This document shows, piece after piece, positions 3,095-27,516 of a DNA stretch of 43,878 nt (position 1 is its first letter; every line of letters begins with the position of its first letter). The stretch comes from a virus (taxonomy: Duplodnaviria > Caudoviricetes), in the IMG/VR virus record IMGVR_UViG_3300048575_000062, positions 1 through 43,878 of that record, one strand, 5' to 3'. The notes beneath the pieces are model-generated. The model was not told the origin of the DNA. It searched no databases and saw nothing but the letters and a program-made list of their open reading frames with translations. Made by a program: the position numbers and the translations under genes.

Positions 3095-3787
3095 TTACAT
3101 TTGCGTTCTTGCTAACTTTCCAACAACCTTATATAAATGGAGTATTTGATTGCCATCAATCTCCATATCAGGATATTTTCGACGTCCATCAGGGTTACAT
3201 ATCGGATTGTATGAAACCAGCTTTAAACCTGTTTTTTCAATATAGATTAATTTAAGTAATCTATCTTCATTAGTGATCACAACATAGGGCTGTCCGTTAT
3301 CTATAAGGTCTTTATCTTGAATTTCACGAACAAATATTGTGTCTCCTGGCATATATTTATCATACATTGAATCTCCATATACGGTTATTCCATAGCATCC
3401 TGTGAAATCTGGAATATTCACATATCCTACAACTTTATTTTCGTCTCCATCAAAACCTATTCCATGCCCTGCGCAAACACGAATATCTAATATTTTTATA
3501 TCGCTGCTTGTTGTTGGTTTCTCCATTATTATGGAAGTAATTTCACTTTTCTTTAATGGTTCACCTTTGCCAGTTAGAATGTAATCAGAATTTATTTTAT
3601 CGCAGTTGGTACACACAGCGGATAATATATCTGAGGGAAGAGACTTATCTTTCCCCGTATTAGTTTTTCCTCCTTTCATTTGCGAAATTTTAGACTGAGC
3701 AGATTTTACTCCAAATTTTGTTTCTATTTCATAAGGAGTTATTCCAACTCTTTCAATTGCTTCAAAAAATCTTTCAATCATTCCCAT
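3095..3787 (-). CDS. CI-like repressor (HTH + S24 peptidase)
   Basis: CAG cleavage motif (VCAGHG), GDSM catalytic Ser, LLK; N-terminal helical domain; start taken at MGMIE. Confidence 0.9.
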   Translation of the reverse strand: MGMIERFFEAIERVGITPYEIETKFGVKSAQSKISQMKGGKTNTGKDKSLPSDILSAVCTNCDKINSDYILTGKGEPLKKSEITSIIMEKPTTSSDIKILDIRVCAGHGIGFDGDENKVVGYVNIPDFTGCYGITVYGDSMYDKYMPGDTIFVREIQDKDLIDNGQPYVVITNEDRLLKLIYIEKTGLKLVSYNPICNPDGRRKYPDMEIDGNQILHLYKVVGKLARTQM

Positions 3788-3811
3788 AAATTTAGATTTT
3801 AAAATTTTATG

Positions 3812-3827
3812 CTTTAGAAATATAAAG
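3812..3827 (+). promoter_or_regulatory. Operator copy 1 (CTTTAGAAATATAAAG)
   Basis: Identical to copies at 4732-4747 (reverse) and 4761-4776. Confidence 0.7.
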
Positions 3828-4051
3828 TTTGTTTGCCTCGAAATCAAGTTGCGGATGATACCGATTAATAAATTAAACTGTTTCTGTAGAGGATTGTATT
3901 GGAGACTTCACTTCAAACCGCAACTTTGGAGTTGGTCACTTCATTTTATTACTATCTATAAAGAGCTTATGAAATTTATACCTTTCAATATAAAAGACGA
4001 TTATTATTGTTGGAATTATTAATTCAATCAGGTACTTCTAAATAAAACATG

Positions 4052-17013: not shown

Positions 17014-17773
17014 ATGAAACGTTATTATTTTTACAGAAGTTTTATTTTCTCTAGTGATACTAGGAATTACTATTTGCGGATGTGACAATAAATCAAAAAA
17101 AACATCCGACGTTGACATTGCAGGCAACATGGGAATGTATGTTGCCACATTGCCTTGTGCTGACTGCCCTGGCATCTTTACCCACCTTACACTGAATGCC
17201 GACAGCACTGCTTATCTGACCACGTTGTATATGGATTCAGACAACACGTCTGAAACAATAGATGGTAGGTGGATCTTTACAGATAGCATCTTTACTATTA
17301 AGGCATCAAACGGTGAAGTTACAATGTACAAACTGTTATCTGAAAATCAACTGGTACAGGTAGGCGAAACTAAAGAAGTGAAGAAAGAGTATATTCTTAC
17401 CAAAGAAGCAGAGATGTTAGCCGATAGTTTTGTAGGAACTTACAGTTTCGGTTCAGACGAAAAAGGTGCTTACAGGCAAACACTCAAGATTGCCAAAGTA
17501 GACGACAGGCATGTAGAAGTTGCTATCACTAAAACAGGCGGCAAAGCCAAAGGGTGTGAATTCAAGGCGCAAGGTTATATCGTAAACAACCAGATCGAGG
17601 TCAACCTAAAAGATGTGAACCCTGATATGAAATCAGTAATGACCATTTGCCCGCTTAACAGTGGGGATGGCCTGAATGTCTTTACTTCTAAGTTTGATGA
17701 TCGTTACGATCTGATGTTTTTCTGTGGTGGCGGTGGTAGCTTGGCAGGAGACTATATTAAAGAGAACCACTAG
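17014..17773 (+). pseudogene. NlpE N-terminal-domain lipoprotein with frameshift in signal peptide
   Basis: LPCADCPGI motif; ATG 17014 is one base out of frame with lipobox ICGC; the body frame has TGA at 17015. Confidence 0.7.
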
Positions 17774-20441: not shown

Positions 20442-20514
20442 CGCGGGGTAGAGCAGTGGTCAGCTCGCTACTTTGACTTGGTAGAGGTCGGTGATTCGAA
20501 TTCATCCCCCGCAA
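20442..20514 (+). tRNA. Atypical tRNA: initiator-type body, anticodon GAC (Val)
   Basis: CGCGGGG/CCCCGCA (C1xA72), D-stem GAGC/GCTC, arm CTACT-TTGACTT-GGTAG, T-arm GGTGA-TTCGAAT-TCATC, A73. Confidence 0.85.
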
Positions 20515-20544: not shown

Positions 20545-20910
20545 ATGGAAATTTTGACCCTCTCAATAAAACAGAAGTTTTTTGATGAGATTTTAGCAGG
20601 CATTAAGAAGCAAGAGTTTAGAGAGATTAGACCTAATTCTCAATCTAAATATTGTGAGCTTGATGAAGACGGCTATGTGAAAGAGATTGAAGGCGTTTTG
20701 CAACCTCGCAAATATGATGCTATCAAATTTTTAACAGGTGAATATAAGGGCAAAAGACCTTTTATAGTTGTAGAGGTCAAAGACGCTAAAATAGAACTCT
20801 TTGAAGATGAGAATCATGAATTAGTAACCTACGCCTATCAAGGTGAGCAGTATATAGCCGCTCAGGTGGTTTATGATCTAGGTGAGGTCTTAGAGAGACA
20901 TATAGATTGA
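20545..20910 (+). CDS. ASCH-domain protein
   Basis: LSIKQKFFDEILAGIKKQEFR (GxKxxExR). Confidence 0.85.
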   Translation: MEILTLSIKQKFFDEILAGIKKQEFREIRPNSQSKYCELDEDGYVKEIEGVLQPRKYDAIKFLTGEYKGKRPFIVVEVKDAKIELFEDENHELVTYAYQGEQYIAAQVVYDLGEVLERHID

Positions 20911-20936
20911 TTGTTTAATTAAAATTGATTTGCTGA

Positions 20937-21080
20937 GTTAGAATTAAAGTAGGTACAAGCGCAACGTCAAATAAAGGCGTTGTTGGTCGCAGAAGTTTTA
21001 CTGGTGGTAACGGCCAGTTTATGAACCGTAGACAGAAATACGGTGAAGTTCGTAGGGGATTAGGTTTATCCGGAGGTTAG
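20937..21080 (+). CDS. 47-codon Arg/Gly-rich peptide ending GLSGG; start uncertain
   Basis: Open frame GTT..TAG fills the gap between ASCH and PP-loop genes; preceded by in-frame TGA; only internal ATG at 21021. Confidence 0.65.
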   Translation, partial: VRIKVGTSATSNKGVVGRRSFTGGNGQFMNRRQKYGEVRRGLGLSGG

Positions 21081-21754
21081 TGTCTATGCTAATCGAGGAT
21101 ACATATTGCAGCATTGACCGAATTCGTGAAAAGACGAGTTCGGCTTTGCTGTTTTTATCTTTTGGTAAGGATAGCCTTGTCTTGCTTGACCTCATCTATC
21201 CGAAGTTTGACAGGATTGTATGTGCCTTTATGTATTTTGTCCCCGAACTGGGGCATATTGAACGCTGGATAAAGTGGACGAAAGCAAAGTACCCGAAAAT
21301 AGAGCTCATCCAAATACCGCATTGGAATTTAACCTACATACTTAAATCAGGTATGTATTGTGTTCCTAACCCTAAAGTAAAACTATTGAAGCTTGCTGAT
21401 GTGGTTAAATCCATGAAATTGAAATACGGTATTGATTATGTCTTTTTAGGGATGAAGAAAGCTGACTCCATGAATCGACGTTTGATGTTGAATAGAATGG
21501 GTTTCCCATACGAGAAAAACGGGATGGTTTACTCTCTGGCTGACTGGACGCAAAAGGATATTCTTGCTTATATGAAACAAAAAGGATTACCCGAGCCTGT
21601 AAGGTATTCCAAGAATGCCAGTGGCGGGGTTGGCTTTAATCCCGAATGCTTTTTATGGTTAGAAAAGAACTACCCTGAAGATCTTGAGAAGATTTACGGG
21701 GTATTTCCTATGAGTAGAAGAATATTATTTGAACACTATAATGGAACTAAGTAA
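21080..21754 (+). CDS. PAPS-reductase-like PP-loop protein
   Basis: SFGKDS PP-loop; GMKKADSMNRR; LADWT. Confidence 0.85.
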   Translation: MSMLIEDTYCSIDRIREKTSSALLFLSFGKDSLVLLDLIYPKFDRIVCAFMYFVPELGHIERWIKWTKAKYPKIELIQIPHWNLTYILKSGMYCVPNPKVKLLKLADVVKSMKLKYGIDYVFLGMKKADSMNRRLMLNRMGFPYEKNGMVYSLADWTQKDILAYMKQKGLPEPVRYSKNASGGVGFNPECFLWLEKNYPEDLEKIYGVFPMSRRILFEHYNGTK

Positions 21755-22481
21755 GTATATAACATCGGAATCGGTAGAGCTTAAACGCTCTATGATTCAT
21801 CTAGCAGGGTATAATCCCCGTAAAATATCCGAAGAAGCGAAGAAAACGCTTAAACGAGGGATAAAGAAATTCGGGCTTGTAGGCGGTTTGGTAGTAAACA
21901 AGCGTACAGGTATGACACTTGTATCGGGGCACCAGCGTTTATCCGTTATGGATGAGCTGAATAAGTATCCGGATAATGATTATCTAATTCGTGTAGAGCT
22001 TATTGATGTTGACGAAAAGCGGGAAAAGGAGCTAAACATCTTAACGAATAATCCAAATGCTATGGGCTCATGGGATTATGACGCTTTACGTGAGCTTATT
22101 CCCGATATAGATTGGAAAGATGCCGGACTGACAGATGTAGATTTGAATCTCATCGGCTGTGATTTCTTACTCCAGACAGAAGAGGAAAGCTCACTCGCTG
22201 ATGCACTAAGTGATATGATGGCACCTGTTACCGAACAGAAAGAAGCCGAGAAAGCTGCTAAACAATTGGAAAAGGCGGAAAAGGTCGCTCACATGAAAGA
22301 CGTTAAAGAACAGGTAAAGCAGTCAGCACAAGAAAAAGCAAACGATATGGATGCCTATCTGATGTTATCCTTTTCTTCCTATGAGGAGAAAGCTGCTTTC
22401 TGTGAAAGGTTTGGATTTGACCCCAACGAGAAGTTTATAGTAGGTTCAGTATTTGATGAAATGATAGAAAGGATAGATTGA
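21741..22481 (+). CDS. ParB/Srx N-terminal domain protein
   Basis: YNPRKIS...LVVN...LVSGHQRL. Confidence 0.88.
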   Translation: MELSKYITSESVELKRSMIHLAGYNPRKISEEAKKTLKRGIKKFGLVGGLVVNKRTGMTLVSGHQRLSVMDELNKYPDNDYLIRVELIDVDEKREKELNILTNNPNAMGSWDYDALRELIPDIDWKDAGLTDVDLNLIGCDFLLQTEEESSLADALSDMMAPVTEQKEAEKAAKQLEKAEKVAHMKDVKEQVKQSAQEKANDMDAYLMLSFSSYEEKAAFCERFGFDPNEKFIVGSVFDEMIERID

Positions 22482-22483
22482 TT

Positions 22484-23017
22484 ATGGCAAGAAGTGAATC
22501 TAAAGATACAGCAAAGAGCAATAAGGGAAGAAAACCCAAATTTGATTACACAGGAGAAGAGTTCCTTTCCTCTGTGGAATCATTTGCAAAGAAAGGATTC
22601 ACGGATAAAGAGATTGCTTATGCTTTGGGTATAGCTCCGCAAAGATTTTGTGAGAAGAAGAGTTTGCACCCGGAATTACGTGAAGTCTTAGCGCGCGGGC
22701 GGGCGACAATTAACGCAGCGGTAAGGGCAAAATTCCTTGCAATGGCTATTGGTGGTATTAAGACAAAGAGTGTTACTAAGCGTAAACTGAAAGATATTAA
22801 TGGGGATTATACGGGCGATGAAGAAATTCAGAGTGTAGAAAGTGAGCTGGCTCCAAGTCTTCAAGCTATGTCCGTCTGGTTATACCATCATGACGAAGAG
22901 TGGAGAAAGATTGAACGAAAGCAGGATGAAGATGCCAGCGATATTCCTACAGATATAAAGCAAGGCGTTGATATTGATTCTTGGATTAAAGATCAGGTGA
23001 AAGGAGATGGGAAATGA
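22484..23017 (+). CDS. terS: Terminase small subunit
   Basis: GRKPK, HTH (GFTDKEIAYALGI), directly before TerL. Confidence 0.8.
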   Translation: MARSESKDTAKSNKGRKPKFDYTGEEFLSSVESFAKKGFTDKEIAYALGIAPQRFCEKKSLHPELREVLARGRATINAAVRAKFLAMAIGGIKTKSVTKRKLKDINGDYTGDEEIQSVESELAPSLQAMSVWLYHHDEEWRKIERKQDEDASDIPTDIKQGVDIDSWIKDQVKGDGK

Positions 23018-24282
23018 TTACCCCGCAGGCCATTTACCATCCGTTATACATTGACAAGGAGAAGTTTATAATTCTTATTACCGGTGGTCGTGGATCGGGT
23101 AAGTCGTTCAATGCATCTACCTTTATCGAGCGTCTGACATTTGAAATGACTCCTGTCGAGAAGATAGTTCATCAGATTCTTTATACCCGTTACACAATGG
23201 TTTCGGCCGGAATATCTATTATTCCCGAAATGATGGAGAAGATAGAACTGGATGGAACAACGAAATATTTTAAGACTACCAAGACGGATATAGTCAACAG
23301 AATGACTAACAGCCGTATCATGTTCCGGGGTATCAAAACCTCATCAGGGAATCAGACGGCAAAGCTGAAATCCATTCAAGGCATAACGACTTTTGTCTGT
23401 GATGAAGCGGAGGAGTGGACTAATGAGGAGGAATTTGATAAGATCATGCTCTCCATTCGTAAGAAGGGTATTCAGAACCGGATTATCATCATAATGAACC
23501 CTTGTGATTCCAATCACTTCATCTATAAAAAATACATTGAGAAAACTCATAAACAGGTAGAAATTGACGGTGTTCAGGTGCAAATCTCCACTCATCCAAA
23601 CGTATTACACATTCACACCACTTACCTTGATAATATGGAGAATCTTTCTCCTGAGTTCTTGAAAGAGGTTCAGGATATGAAGGTGAGCAACCCCGAAAAG
23701 TACGCCCATGTGGTTATCGGTCGTTGGGCAGATGTTGCCGCGGGTGCTGTGTTCAAGAAGTGGGGTATTGTTGATGAATTTCCACCTTATGCGAAAAAGG
23801 TTGCCATAGGTCAGGACTTCGGTTATACGCACGATCCGTCGGCTTCCATTCGTTGCGGTATCGTTGACAATGCTTTGTATCTGGATGAAGTTGACTATCG
23901 AACTGGATTATTGTCTTCTGACATTATTAAAACACTCCGTCCGTGGGGATTGAAAGTATATGCAGATAGTGCCGATCCCCGGCTGATTCAGGAAATACAC
24001 AACGGTGGTATTACCATCTATGCAACGGAGAAAGGTGCCGGATCAATCAATGCCGGTATTGACAAAATGCAAAGCATGGAGATATTTATCACTAAGAGGT
24101 CTTATAATCTGATAAGAGAGTTTAGAAACTATGTATGGGCAAAGGACAAAGACGGGAACTATATCAATGAGCCGGAGGATCACGATAACCACGGGATCGA
24201 CGCTGCCCGATATTATTGTTTGTGTGCCCTCTTAGGTAAGATTCAGAAGCCTAAAGATTTAACAGGAATATTCACACATTAA
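23014..24282 (+). CDS. terL: Terminase large subunit, PBSX family
   Basis: GGRGSGKS; DEAEE; DFGY..DP; NHGIDAARY. Confidence 0.95.
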   Translation: MITPQAIYHPLYIDKEKFIILITGGRGSGKSFNASTFIERLTFEMTPVEKIVHQILYTRYTMVSAGISIIPEMMEKIELDGTTKYFKTTKTDIVNRMTNSRIMFRGIKTSSGNQTAKLKSIQGITTFVCDEAEEWTNEEEFDKIMLSIRKKGIQNRIIIIMNPCDSNHFIYKKYIEKTHKQVEIDGVQVQISTHPNVLHIHTTYLDNMENLSPEFLKEVQDMKVSNPEKYAHVVIGRWADVAAGAVFKKWGIVDEFPPYAKKVAIGQDFGYTHDPSASIRCGIVDNALYLDEVDYRTGLLSSDIIKTLRPWGLKVYADSADPRLIQEIHNGGITIYATEKGAGSINAGIDKMQSMEIFITKRSYNLIREFRNYVWAKDKDGNYINEPEDHDNHGIDAARYYCLCALLGKIQKPKDLTGIFTH

Positions 24283-25934: not shown

Positions 25935-26606
25935 ATGAAATGTCCACATTGTCAAGTTGAAATTAATGAAGATTTTAGTGAGGTTTATATTGGTAAATAT
26001 AAGGATGTACATTATAGTTTATATTATATGAAGTGCCCGAATTCAAATTGTGAAATGCCTGTAATTTTATTGTCTTCATCAAAAAGTCCAATGTATTATA
26101 GTGATGGTAGGGCGACGCTAAAAGACAGTACTGAGAAAAAAAATATAATATATCCATTAAGTAGTGGTCGTACCCCTGCTGCTCCAGAAGTCGAATCTAA
26201 GTTTGCAGAAGACTACAATGAAGCTTGTCTGGTACTTTCGTTTAGCCCAAAAGCAAGCGCTGCCTTAAGTCGTAGATGTTTGCAAAATATCATTCGCATG
26301 AAAGAGGGTATTAAAGAACGGAATCTCAAAACAGAGATAGATACGTTAATTACAACCGGTAAACTTCCTTCATATATAAGCGATAATCTTGAAATAATAC
26401 GTGGGTTTGGGAATATCGCTGCTCACGGTATGGAAGATCAAACTTCTGGTGAAATTTTGGATGTAGAACCTAATGAAGCAGAATTCTTGTTAGATGTTTT
26501 GGAACTTCTTTTTGATTTTTATTTTGTTCAGGCTGCCAAAGCCGCCAAGATGAAAACTACGCTAAATCAGAAACTGACAAGTGCAGGACAAAAGCCTATA
26601 CTATAA
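25935..26606 (+). CDS. Zn-ribbon + DUF4145 (HEPN-like) protein
   Basis: CPHC/CPNSNC; DYNEA...ASAALSRRCLQ; RGFGNIAAH (Rx4-6H-like). Confidence 0.85.
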   Translation: MKCPHCQVEINEDFSEVYIGKYKDVHYSLYYMKCPNSNCEMPVILLSSSKSPMYYSDGRATLKDSTEKKNIIYPLSSGRTPAAPEVESKFAEDYNEACLVLSFSPKASAALSRRCLQNIIRMKEGIKERNLKTEIDTLITTGKLPSYISDNLEIIRGFGNIAAHGMEDQTSGEILDVEPNEAEFLLDVLELLFDFYFVQAAKAAKMKTTLNQKLTSAGQKPIL

Positions 26607-26851: not shown

Positions 26852-27145
26852 ATGAGAATATTTACAGAACAAGCTTTAAAAGAATATGCAGAGAATCACC
26901 CTGATTCAAAGGTGGCTTTGCAAGAATGGACTATGATTGTTAAGAAGAGTGAGTGGGCTTGTTTTGCTGATGTCAAGAAAACCTTTAATAGTGTTGACAA
27001 TGTAGGTAATCAGCACTATGTTTTCAATATCAAAGGCAACAATTATCGCTTAGTAGTCGTTATAAAATTTACTGTAAAGTTTGTATATGTTCGTTTTATT
27101 GGTACTCATAAAGAATATGATAAAATAGATTGCGCTAATATTTAG
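26852..27145 (+). CDS. higB: HigB toxin (RelE superfamily)
   Basis: VFNIKGNNYRLVV...FIGTHKEYDKID; promoter TATCTTTG 26822-26829. Confidence 0.93.
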   Translation: MRIFTEQALKEYAENHPDSKVALQEWTMIVKKSEWACFADVKKTFNSVDNVGNQHYVFNIKGNNYRLVVVIKFTVKFVYVRFIGTHKEYDKIDCANI

Positions 27146-27150
27146 AGCTT

Positions 27151-27516
27151 ATGACAAAGATAGAAAATCAAGCCCAATATGAATGGGCAGTGAAAAGAGT
27201 AGAGGAGCTTCTTCCATTAGTGAAAGATGATACCCCTTTGAATGATCCTAACAGCATAGAGTTAGAGCTTCTTTCCAATCTTGTTGCTGATTACTCAGAG
27301 GAGCACTTTGCTATTGGAGAGCCTTCATTAGTGGATGTTCTCAAACTTCGTATGTTTGAAATGGATCTGAATCAGAAATCTCTATCTAAGTTGATTGGCG
27401 TTAGCCCTTCACGTCTTAGTGATTATATTTCTGGCAAATGTGAACCGACATTGAAAGTTGCTCGTGAGATTAGTCGAAAGTTGAATATTGATGCTAATAT
27501 CGTGTTAGGGGTATGA
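27151..27516 (+). CDS. higA: HigA antitoxin (XRE HTH)
   Basis: ELELLSNLVADY; LNQKSLSKLIGVSPSRLSDYISG. Confidence 0.92.
   Translation: MTKIENQAQYEWAVKRVEELLPLVKDDTPLNDPNSIELELLSNLVADYSEEHFAIGEPSLVDVLKLRMFEMDLNQKSLSKLIGVSPSRLSDYISGKCEPTLKVAREISRKLNIDANIVLGV

Follow-up and report, generated by a model that had tools for sequence, protein, structure and literature searches.

The 43,878-base virus record IMGVR_UViG_3300048575_000062, whose whole length we call the window, carries ahead of its terminase genes a tRNA of initiator type with the anticodon GAC and a short basic gene with a C-terminal glycine tail. We consider it probable, and hold this view with good confidence, that the tRNA would start translation at the non-standard first codon of the glycine-tailed gene, with Val replacing methionine and with four-base pairing between tRNA and start site. 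This reading is built on sequence comparison, and four observations carry it: the anatomy of the tRNA, the absence of a standard start from the gene, coding selection on its frame, and covariation between tRNA and start site across related loci. The relatives of the window are phages and prophages of Bacteroidota, which makes a Bacteroidales species its likely host. The locus is made up as follows:

20442..20514, + strand: initiator-type tRNA, anticodon GAC at 20475-20477 (ARAGORN; Rfam RF00005, 51.4 bits)
20545..20910, + strand: ASCH-domain protein, 121 aa (Pfam ASCH, E=0.0078, below cut-off; motif GxKxxExR)
20921..20939, + strand: recoded start site with an A-run at -16 to -13, GCTGA at -5 to -1 and then GTT as first codon (sequence; profile built on 39 recoded starts and 27 with ATG)
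20937..21080, + strand: basic, Arg/Gly-rich protein of 47 aa with Val first and the end GLSGG (member of the glycine-tailed paralogue family)
21086..21754, + strand: PP-loop enzyme (adenine nucleotide alpha-hydrolase fold), 222 aa, annotated as PAPS reductase-like (Pfam PF01507, E=4.5e-6)
21741..22481, + strand: ParB-like domain protein, 246 aa (PHROG 620, E=8.7e-25, and further ParB-like families; no Pfam match)
22484..23017, + strand: terminase small subunit, terS, with its ATG at 22484 (PHROG 309, E=5.4e-31)
23014..24282, + strand: terminase large subunit, terL (Pfam Terminase_3, E=2.7e-25)

The peptide gene opens with GTT immediately after an in-frame TGA and has no ATG, GTG or TTG start. 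This explains why it is missing from the list of open reading frames (ORFs) and why the peptide quoted in the initial annotation begins with Val. Coding selection acts on the frame from codon 2: pairwise comparison of six close relatives returned 240 synonymous against 128 non-synonymous codon differences, with 153 against 78 in codons 2-28, ahead of the first Met. The peptide which the initial annotation had proposed is thus borne out as a real coding sequence. Its residues R39, G43 and G47 are at least 90% conserved, and it has no match in Pfam, PHROG, NCBIfam or PADLOC.

The tRNA, called Val(GAC) by ARAGORN, displays the initiator traits C1xA72, G2-C71, C3-G70, A11-U24 and A73; its base 37 is U and it has no encoded CCA. 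Elongator tRNA-Val has a paired 1:72 and a purine at position 37, as does host tRNA-Val(UAC) with G1-C72 and A37. A purine at 11 with a pyrimidine at 24 is a trait of bacterial initiator tRNAs, while G2-C71, C3-G70 and A73 are determinants for the formyltransferase. The acceptor and D arms match those of Bacteroidales initiators. These features hold across the locus family: scoring of pairs covered 79 distinct tRNA sequences found at the locus, 75 of them recoded and 2 with CAU, and among the recoded ones 1:72 is unpaired in 75 of 75, C3-G70 and A73 are each present in 75 of 75 and G2-C71 in 74. Position 11 is a purine in all 65 Val types. An L360-type tRNA, which lies outside the 75, has C73. 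Position 1:72 is also unpaired in 23 of the 24 tRNAs of the stem-covariation set. Among the stem pairs, 15 of 21 have changed on both sides, a value equalled in none of 500 shuffles. With its formylation determinants constant while the other stems co-vary, the tRNA is, to judge from these patterns, selected as an initiator; it is not a canonical tRNA-fMet by membership, yet most likely works like one.

Among 80 viral loci and the window, 78 contain a complete peptide frame. All 72 of these with a tRNA start with GTC (70) or GTT (2) after GA; the other six comprise two tRNA-less loci with ATG, one degenerate tRNA with GTC, and three loci cut by a contig end. A search with a DNA pattern that described the tRNA body and fixed U37-U38 but allowed any anticodon hit 120 loci, all 120 of them with GAC. 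More distant loci were drawn from phage records, viral contigs, species genomes and metagenomes, and 473 loci were clustered by PP-loop identity (90%) and tRNA state into 69 clusters, leaving out tRNA-less loci with less than 1.5 kb upstream. A non-CAU tRNA with a 7-base anticodon loop is found in 41 of the 69, and in 39 of these 41 the peptide starts at the cognate codon and is preceded by a base -1 complementary to base 37. The match is fully Watson-Crick in 38 of the 39, the window being the sole G-U wobble. Seven states of anticodon and base 37 occur: GAC/U pairs with A-GTC or A-GTT starts, AAC/U with A-GTT, AAC/C with G-GTT, AGU/G with C-ACT (frequently on two or three tandem peptides), GGU/G with C-ACC, CGU/G with C-ACG and GAU/U with A-ATC; the conventional CAU/A37 goes with T-ATG. 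Where the tRNA is lacking, the start is ATG in 24 of 25 clusters (22 called by script, two by eye); the exception, L215, keeps an ACT start, and the 5' part of its tRNA is gone. One cluster with a CAU tRNA and two with 8-base loops all have ATG.

Our start caller relied on 4-mers listed from the data and on a likewise data-derived G at -5, which makes the comparison partly circular and counts against it. We therefore checked the covariation by shuffling and on a tree. When tRNA states were shuffled among the 39 clusters, the mean was 23.3 matches and none of 100,000 shuffles reached 39, in a test blind to kinship. The tRNA state changes 25 times on a maximum-likelihood tree. From this tree, after four long-branch rows were dropped and two rows were set by hand, eight independent pairs that differ in tRNA presence could be compared: seven change in the same way, none in the opposite way and one is a tie (p=0.016). 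All 5 pairs that contrast AAC with GAC differ accordingly in their starts, GTT against GTC (p=0.06). In one pair of loci, L044 and L057, the enzymes are near-identical, and one has ATG and no tRNA while the other has GTC and a tRNA. A phylum-wide sample matched in 2 of 401 genomes, and the new one is tRNA-less with ATG.

The same covariation speaks to two other roles for the tRNA. The initial annotation had offered it as a substrate or aminoacyl donor, a suggestion that finds no support, since changes in its anticodon and base 37 go together with changes in the first codon and base -1 of the glycine-tailed genes. It could also be an elongator supplement, or a decoy against tRNA-cutting defences, with the peptides started by weak near-cognate initiation with host fMet-tRNA. 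A pattern search of two host genomes gave only tRNA-Val(UAC), host tRNA-Val(GAC) was not found with three patterns in 2-4 genomes, and phage tRNAs which replace cut host tRNAs are known (PMC10264068, PMC11464382). Such a role is scarcely credible, however, as it accounts neither for the tracking of first codon and base -1 by anticodon and base 37 nor for the return to ATG in loci without the tRNA, and the unpaired 1:72 is a trait of initiators.

Recoded and ATG starts have an upstream A in common: it occupies -13 in 36 of the 39 recoded starts and in 24 of the 27 ATG starts, and A at this position is a known determinant of Bacteroidetes starts (PMC7797042). T occupies -1 in 23 of 27 ATG starts, which follows the same rule of pairing between -1 and 37, here with A37. 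We reject an internal ATG as the true start, given the selection on codons 2-28 and the 7 of 39 clusters that have no in-frame ATG, GTG or TTG at all. We likewise reject read-through of the TGA: several loci have AGA or CGA in place of this triplet, and in 38 of 39 clusters the frame closes within 0-7 codons upstream, a stretch that offers no standard start (a TTG does lie upstream in L147). Elsewhere in the window, 20 matches to GYNGA-GTY included no further convincing recoded start, as judged by eye.

This use of the start also extends to other genes of the locus. The two tRNA clusters whose peptides do not match carry a recoded start on a neighbouring gene instead. In L459, L461 and L462 the peptide has ATG and the PP-loop gene starts with GCTGA-GTC, its first Met being residue 38, past the catalytic loop; in L321 an ATG-started peptide is accompanied by a GTT-started paralogue after the enzyme. 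Paralogues located after the PP-loop gene have an A-GTY start in 21 of 23 distinct cases at loci with the tRNA (17 by script and 4 by eye; one has GCC and one is unclear), compared to ATG in 33 of 33 at tRNA-less loci. GGAGG lies at Shine-Dalgarno distance from 12 of the 17 script-called recoded paralogues. The GCC case is the paralogue of L023, which lies under a GAC tRNA in the usual Shine-Dalgarno and TGA context and is probably a defective allele. Many PP-loop representatives (among them P0131, P0133, P0172, P0179 and P0183) begin at profile position 48 with an internal Met past the catalytic loop; some of these may be recoded starts truncated by the gene caller, as in L459, and others may be contig ends. 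In L321 and L326 (3655-3730), a short GA-GTT-started frame past the ASCH stop continues into a strong hairpin with U-rich bases behind it (z about -2.9), ahead of the ATG-started peptide; this is possibly an attenuator read by the recoded tRNA.

Several loci depart from the usual tRNA arrangement. L348 (3319-3395) and L354 (3346-3422) have, before ASCH, tRNAs with an initiator body, a 6-pair anticodon stem and an 8-base loop; their peptides start with ATG, and both start regions hold ATGCC, partly complementary to the 8-base loops. The sister L345/L351 carries a true CAU initiator. Eight loci (L145, L163, L173, L190, L201-L203 and L206) contain a copy of the 5' part of the tRNA which breaks off past the anticodon arm, with a second match about 550 bases further on, indicating an insertion or duplication at the tRNA. 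In the L306 genome, the stretch bearing the GAC tRNA (G010:C23:3616-3688) has no overlap with the locus, and in L278 the tRNA (469-542) is 2 kb before ASCH. A matching tRNA therefore need not adjoin its target, and action in trans is possible.

The events we propose would begin with a transcript of the operon, from which the tRNA would be released by processing and completed by CCA addition. The valyl-tRNA synthetase (ValRS) reads A35, C36 and A73. Host ValRS would then charge the tRNA, the host formyltransferase would formylate it, and it would enter the P site at A-GTC or A-GTT by four-base pairing, that is, the anticodon triplet plus base 37 with base -1; we regard this series of steps as highly likely. 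The 37:-1 pair could compensate for a weak anticodon stem. The resulting Val-Arg N-terminus resembles the Ala-Arg-Arg that is left after Met removal in the ATG versions. The evidence is comparative and strong, and charging, formylation and initiation are what we infer from it. As to purpose, we favour a gate, at perhaps even odds: production of the strongly basic glycine-tailed proteins would require both the mRNA and the mature tRNA processed out of one operon with a shared promoter, damping leakage in the lysogen and freeing these proteins from dependence on the host start tRNA.

Several observations weigh against this account. The window tRNA lacks the three G-C pairs of the initiator anticodon stem (it has A29-U41, C30-G40 and U31-G39) and is for this reason probably weak; the three pairs are absent from all 65 Val-type tRNAs. 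In E. coli, C30-G40 lowers initiation 20-fold (PMC11497404). Position 11 is U in 10 of 10 Thr types. Whole-length identity of the window tRNA is 44-47/73 to host initiators and 44/76, gapped, to tRNA-Val(UAC), values which do not separate the two ancestries. The GC at -5/-4 of recoded starts has no explanation and is dispensable at four sites. Finally, sister phages manage with ATG and lack the tRNA, which the module can therefore dispense with.

The absent G-C pairs would be less troubling if the tRNA paired with the start region as a guide or regulator, either uncharged or aiding re-initiation or hopping past the stop, and the first residue came by another route. The degenerate D and T loops of a few tRNAs (L010, L305 and L457) would fit such a role, as would the potential of GAC types to extend pairing, with wobbles, as far as -5, and the placement of recoded starts 17-34 bases past the upstream stop in 36 of 37 measured. 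ATG starts, however, mostly lie at similar distances; the formylation determinants are kept in 75 of 75 tRNAs while other stems change; and the three G-C pairs, 29-31 with 39-41, are present in 9 of 10 Thr types. Moreover, the anticodons all belong to amino acids whose synthetases read the anticodon. We therefore find a guide improbable and retain initiation by the charged tRNA.

We wondered what the glycine tail of the translated protein might serve. Small basic ORFs between the PP-loop and ParB genes, collected with no filter for glycine, end in Gly in 38 of 39 cases, compared to 5 of 25 other ORFs there, and the Lactobacillus phages LR1 and JNU_P7 follow the same rule. The paralogue bodies are unrelated basic sequences which vary freely, and their copy number is variable; proteins of 160-200 aa which are variable, basic and do not end in Gly also occur among the paralogues (L308, L332, L337, L339-L341, L352 and L550). 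The initial annotation had singled out a Gly-Gly end and compared it to ubiquitin, ThiS and MoaD. The window peptide does end in SGG, and the near-constant last residue supports a functional C-terminal glycine, but the pair is not conserved: GG is found in 5 of the 38 Gly-ending paralogues, and in 45 of 138 distinct ends of upstream peptides collected with a filter favouring Gly.

The comparison with ubiquitin-like proteins would make the peptide a GG carrier of the ubiquitin/ThiS/TtuB kind that undergoes adenylation and thiocarboxylation to pass on sulfur, the tRNA serving as substrate or donor. Beyond the GG of the window peptide, the predicted fold of a PP-loop homologue (L279), which Foldseek places near LarE, TtuA, CysD and TilS at 13-18% identity and a TM-score of about 0.5, could be taken in its favour. 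The peptide gives no sign of a beta-grasp domain, having 47 aa, no Pfam match and only R39, G43 and G47 conserved. Sulfur-transferring PP-loop enzymes such as TtuA, DndC and APS/PAPS reductase keep catalytic or Fe-S cysteines, and the present enzyme has no conserved cysteine, the Cys columns of the window protein being filled in 44 (Cys46) and 32 (Cys92) of 88 homologues. Among the 47 window proteins scanned with Pfam, none matched ThiF/MoeB, JAB or a desulfurase. With GG not conserved, the bodies unrelated and the cysteine lacking, the analogy is not supported, and sulfur transfer of this type is very unlikely.

The catalytic motifs of the PP-loop enzyme are intact. It retains SxGKDS (SFGKDS in the window) and GxKxxD...R, and in an alignment of 88 sequences S25 is present in 88, G27 in 87, K28 in 86 and D29 in 85. 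Its NCBIfam CysH and CysD scores are 13-17 bits, compared to cut-offs of 154-413. Prediction of a complex of the enzyme with ATP and the peptide gave a score of 0.00, which we counted neither way.

The ASCH protein also keeps its catalytic motif, a form of the superfamily motif GxKxx[ETS]xR; its Pfam match is weak, and motif and fold bear the assignment out. Pfam matches 31 of 59 homologues at E<=0.01; G19, K21, E24 and R26 do not vary across 59 of 59 rows, possession of the motif having been the criterion by which these rows were selected; and the predicted model (pLDDT 93) returned ASCH proteins in all of the top ten Foldseek rows, the best at E=0.014. The motif is of the Glu type (Glu24), unlike that of YqfB, the ASCH protein invoked in the initial annotation, which has Thr24 (PMC6972931). 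Glu-type ASCH proteins can strip N4-acetyl groups from ac4C (bioRxiv 10.64898/2026.02.27.708502). As for the ParB-like protein, the gene order recurs, a homologue being found after the PP-loop gene at 403 of the 405 loci whose downstream DNA is long enough; HNH/NUMOD-like genes are inserted between the two in L072 and L323.

From the analogy with other PP-loop enzymes, we suggest that this one may adenylate the terminal Gly carboxylate and join it to an amine on phage DNA or protein, that ParB may bring it to the DNA before packaging, and that ASCH may read or hydrolyse the amide; we put the likelihood of this scheme a little short of even. Its main rival concerns the chemistry alone. The proteins could remain free, as protamine-like DNA-binding or virion proteins whose tail is a docking signal, while PP-loop and ParB add a small molecule to bases in an IbrA/IbrB- or Ssp-like manner and ASCH reads the mark. 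The strong basicity, free variation and variable copy number of the proteins would suit this, as would the fusion of ParB-like domains to methyltransferases in PHROG 498 and PADLOC MTase_II. Distant peptides without terminal Gly, in RAP44, L296, L355, L363 and L578, also point this way and count against ligation. In addition, the PP-loop allele is exchangeable: in L083, L147, L162 and L167 the same tRNA-ASCH-peptide unit stands before PP-loop proteins whose branches are very long (in L083, identity is about 35%), and the peptides of these loci end in NG, GGK or GGD. An exact terminal Gly over unrelated bodies in two phyla nevertheless suits carboxylate chemistry better, and no donor-making enzyme was found in the module. 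We accordingly prefer amide ligation of the Gly tail, and see free proteins with a small-molecule DNA mark as a real possibility of somewhat lower probability.

The surroundings agree with the initial annotation, which had placed four ORFs upstream of terS (ASCH, the basic 47-codon frame, PP-loop and ParB-like) and a ParB-like protein beside the terminase; all are present, and the last matches the profiles PHROG 620, 723 and 940. The initiator-type tRNA ends 30 bases ahead of the ASCH start. We reject it as an integration site in view of its mid-genome location and its fixed distance before ASCH. At the left end of the window, a tRNA-Arg(TCT) at 177-251 is a likely attachment site, and together with an S24 repressor gene at 3095-3847 it suggests a temperate phage. 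The early region encodes an NlpE-like lipoprotein (17054-17773), and between the portal and head genes lie a HigB/HigA toxin-antitoxin pair and a DUF4145 gene (26852-27516 and 25935-26606). A scan for sigma-70 promoters found 6, compared to 8 expected. Short contigs from two metatranscriptome runs overlap parts of the ASCH/peptide region; contigs cannot show transcription, and these were not used as evidence.

The accepted view is that cells begin translation with a single initiator tRNA, that for methionine, and to our knowledge non-AUG initiators are known only as laboratory constructs; older E. coli initiator variants with GAC, GAU or GAA reportedly started translation at matching codons. 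The phage tRNAs share with bacterial tRNA-fMet the unpaired 1:72, G2-C71, C3-G70, A73 and A11-U24, and differ from it in the anticodon (GAC, AAC, AGU, GGU, CGU or GAU rather than CAU), in base 37 (U, C or G), in the Val types' lack of the three G-C pairs, and in serving one gene family only. Compensatory mutants have established pairing between 37 and -1 for the fMet-tRNA of E. coli (PMC10018350), and engineered initiators function at non-AUG codons (PMC11744186). As described there, these constructs have in common with the phage tRNA an initiator body, a swapped anticodon and a matching non-AUG start, whereas the phage tRNA is natural, co-evolves with its target codons through several switches and has a compensating fourth pair. 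Phage tRNAs that supplement the host or evade nucleases, such as the T5 tRNA acting against PARIS (PMC10264068, PMC11464382), also have an altered anticodon loop; by those accounts they replace a host tRNA in normal decoding, whereas the present one would make a start codon that the host does not use.

The PP-loop enzyme shares its SxGKDS loop and fold with TtuA/TtuB, LarE, TilS and the type IV CBASS protein Cap9, and differs from these conjugating enzymes in its low identity and fold similarity, its lack of a conserved Cys, and its putative substrate, basic proteins with a constant C-terminal Gly. Annotated 'PAPS reductase' and 'ParB-like nuclease' pairs, which we take to be IbrA/IbrB-like, occupy the same position before the terminase in Riemerella phage RAP44, Bacteroides phage BS-TP2 and Lactobacillus phages LR1 and JNU_P7; annotation there covers neither the glycine-tailed family nor the recoded initiator, and BS-TP2 gp53 is annotated from an internal ATG. 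Cap9 is a QueC-like enzyme that links a nucleobase to a protein N-terminus (bioRxiv 10.1101/2025.04.06.647259), and the available portion of a paper treating DndC/DndB (PMC10853773) holds no description of the present module. Our literature search, which covered mostly titles and the openings of abstracts and in which subscription journals were largely absent, returned no natural non-CAU initiator with matching start codons and no study of the module. The literature searched offered engineered precedents only.

The repeated re-keying of the anticodon hints at conflict. In its most extended form, which we regard as speculative and on balance unlikely, our proposal is that Bacteroidota phages may keep a private, re-keyed start code, with a Val, Thr or Ile tRNA, that would unlock glycine-tailed polycations for ligation to DNA by the PP-loop enzyme, with ASCH as the eraser, and that the anticodon switches may stem from conflict with tRNA-targeting defences or competing elements. 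If the translation side holds true, these phages would possess a second, virus-owned initiation code, its Val, Thr or Ile anticodons co-evolving with their own start codons, and would offer evolved orthogonal pairs of initiator and start that work without the three G-C pairs. Recoded starts would then explain a class of genes missed or truncated by annotation pipelines, the cultured phage BS-TP2 makes private initiation testable, and the glycine-tailed proteins would stand out as the substrate whose supply is regulated in a common, uncharacterised phage module of PP-loop, ParB and ASCH proteins.

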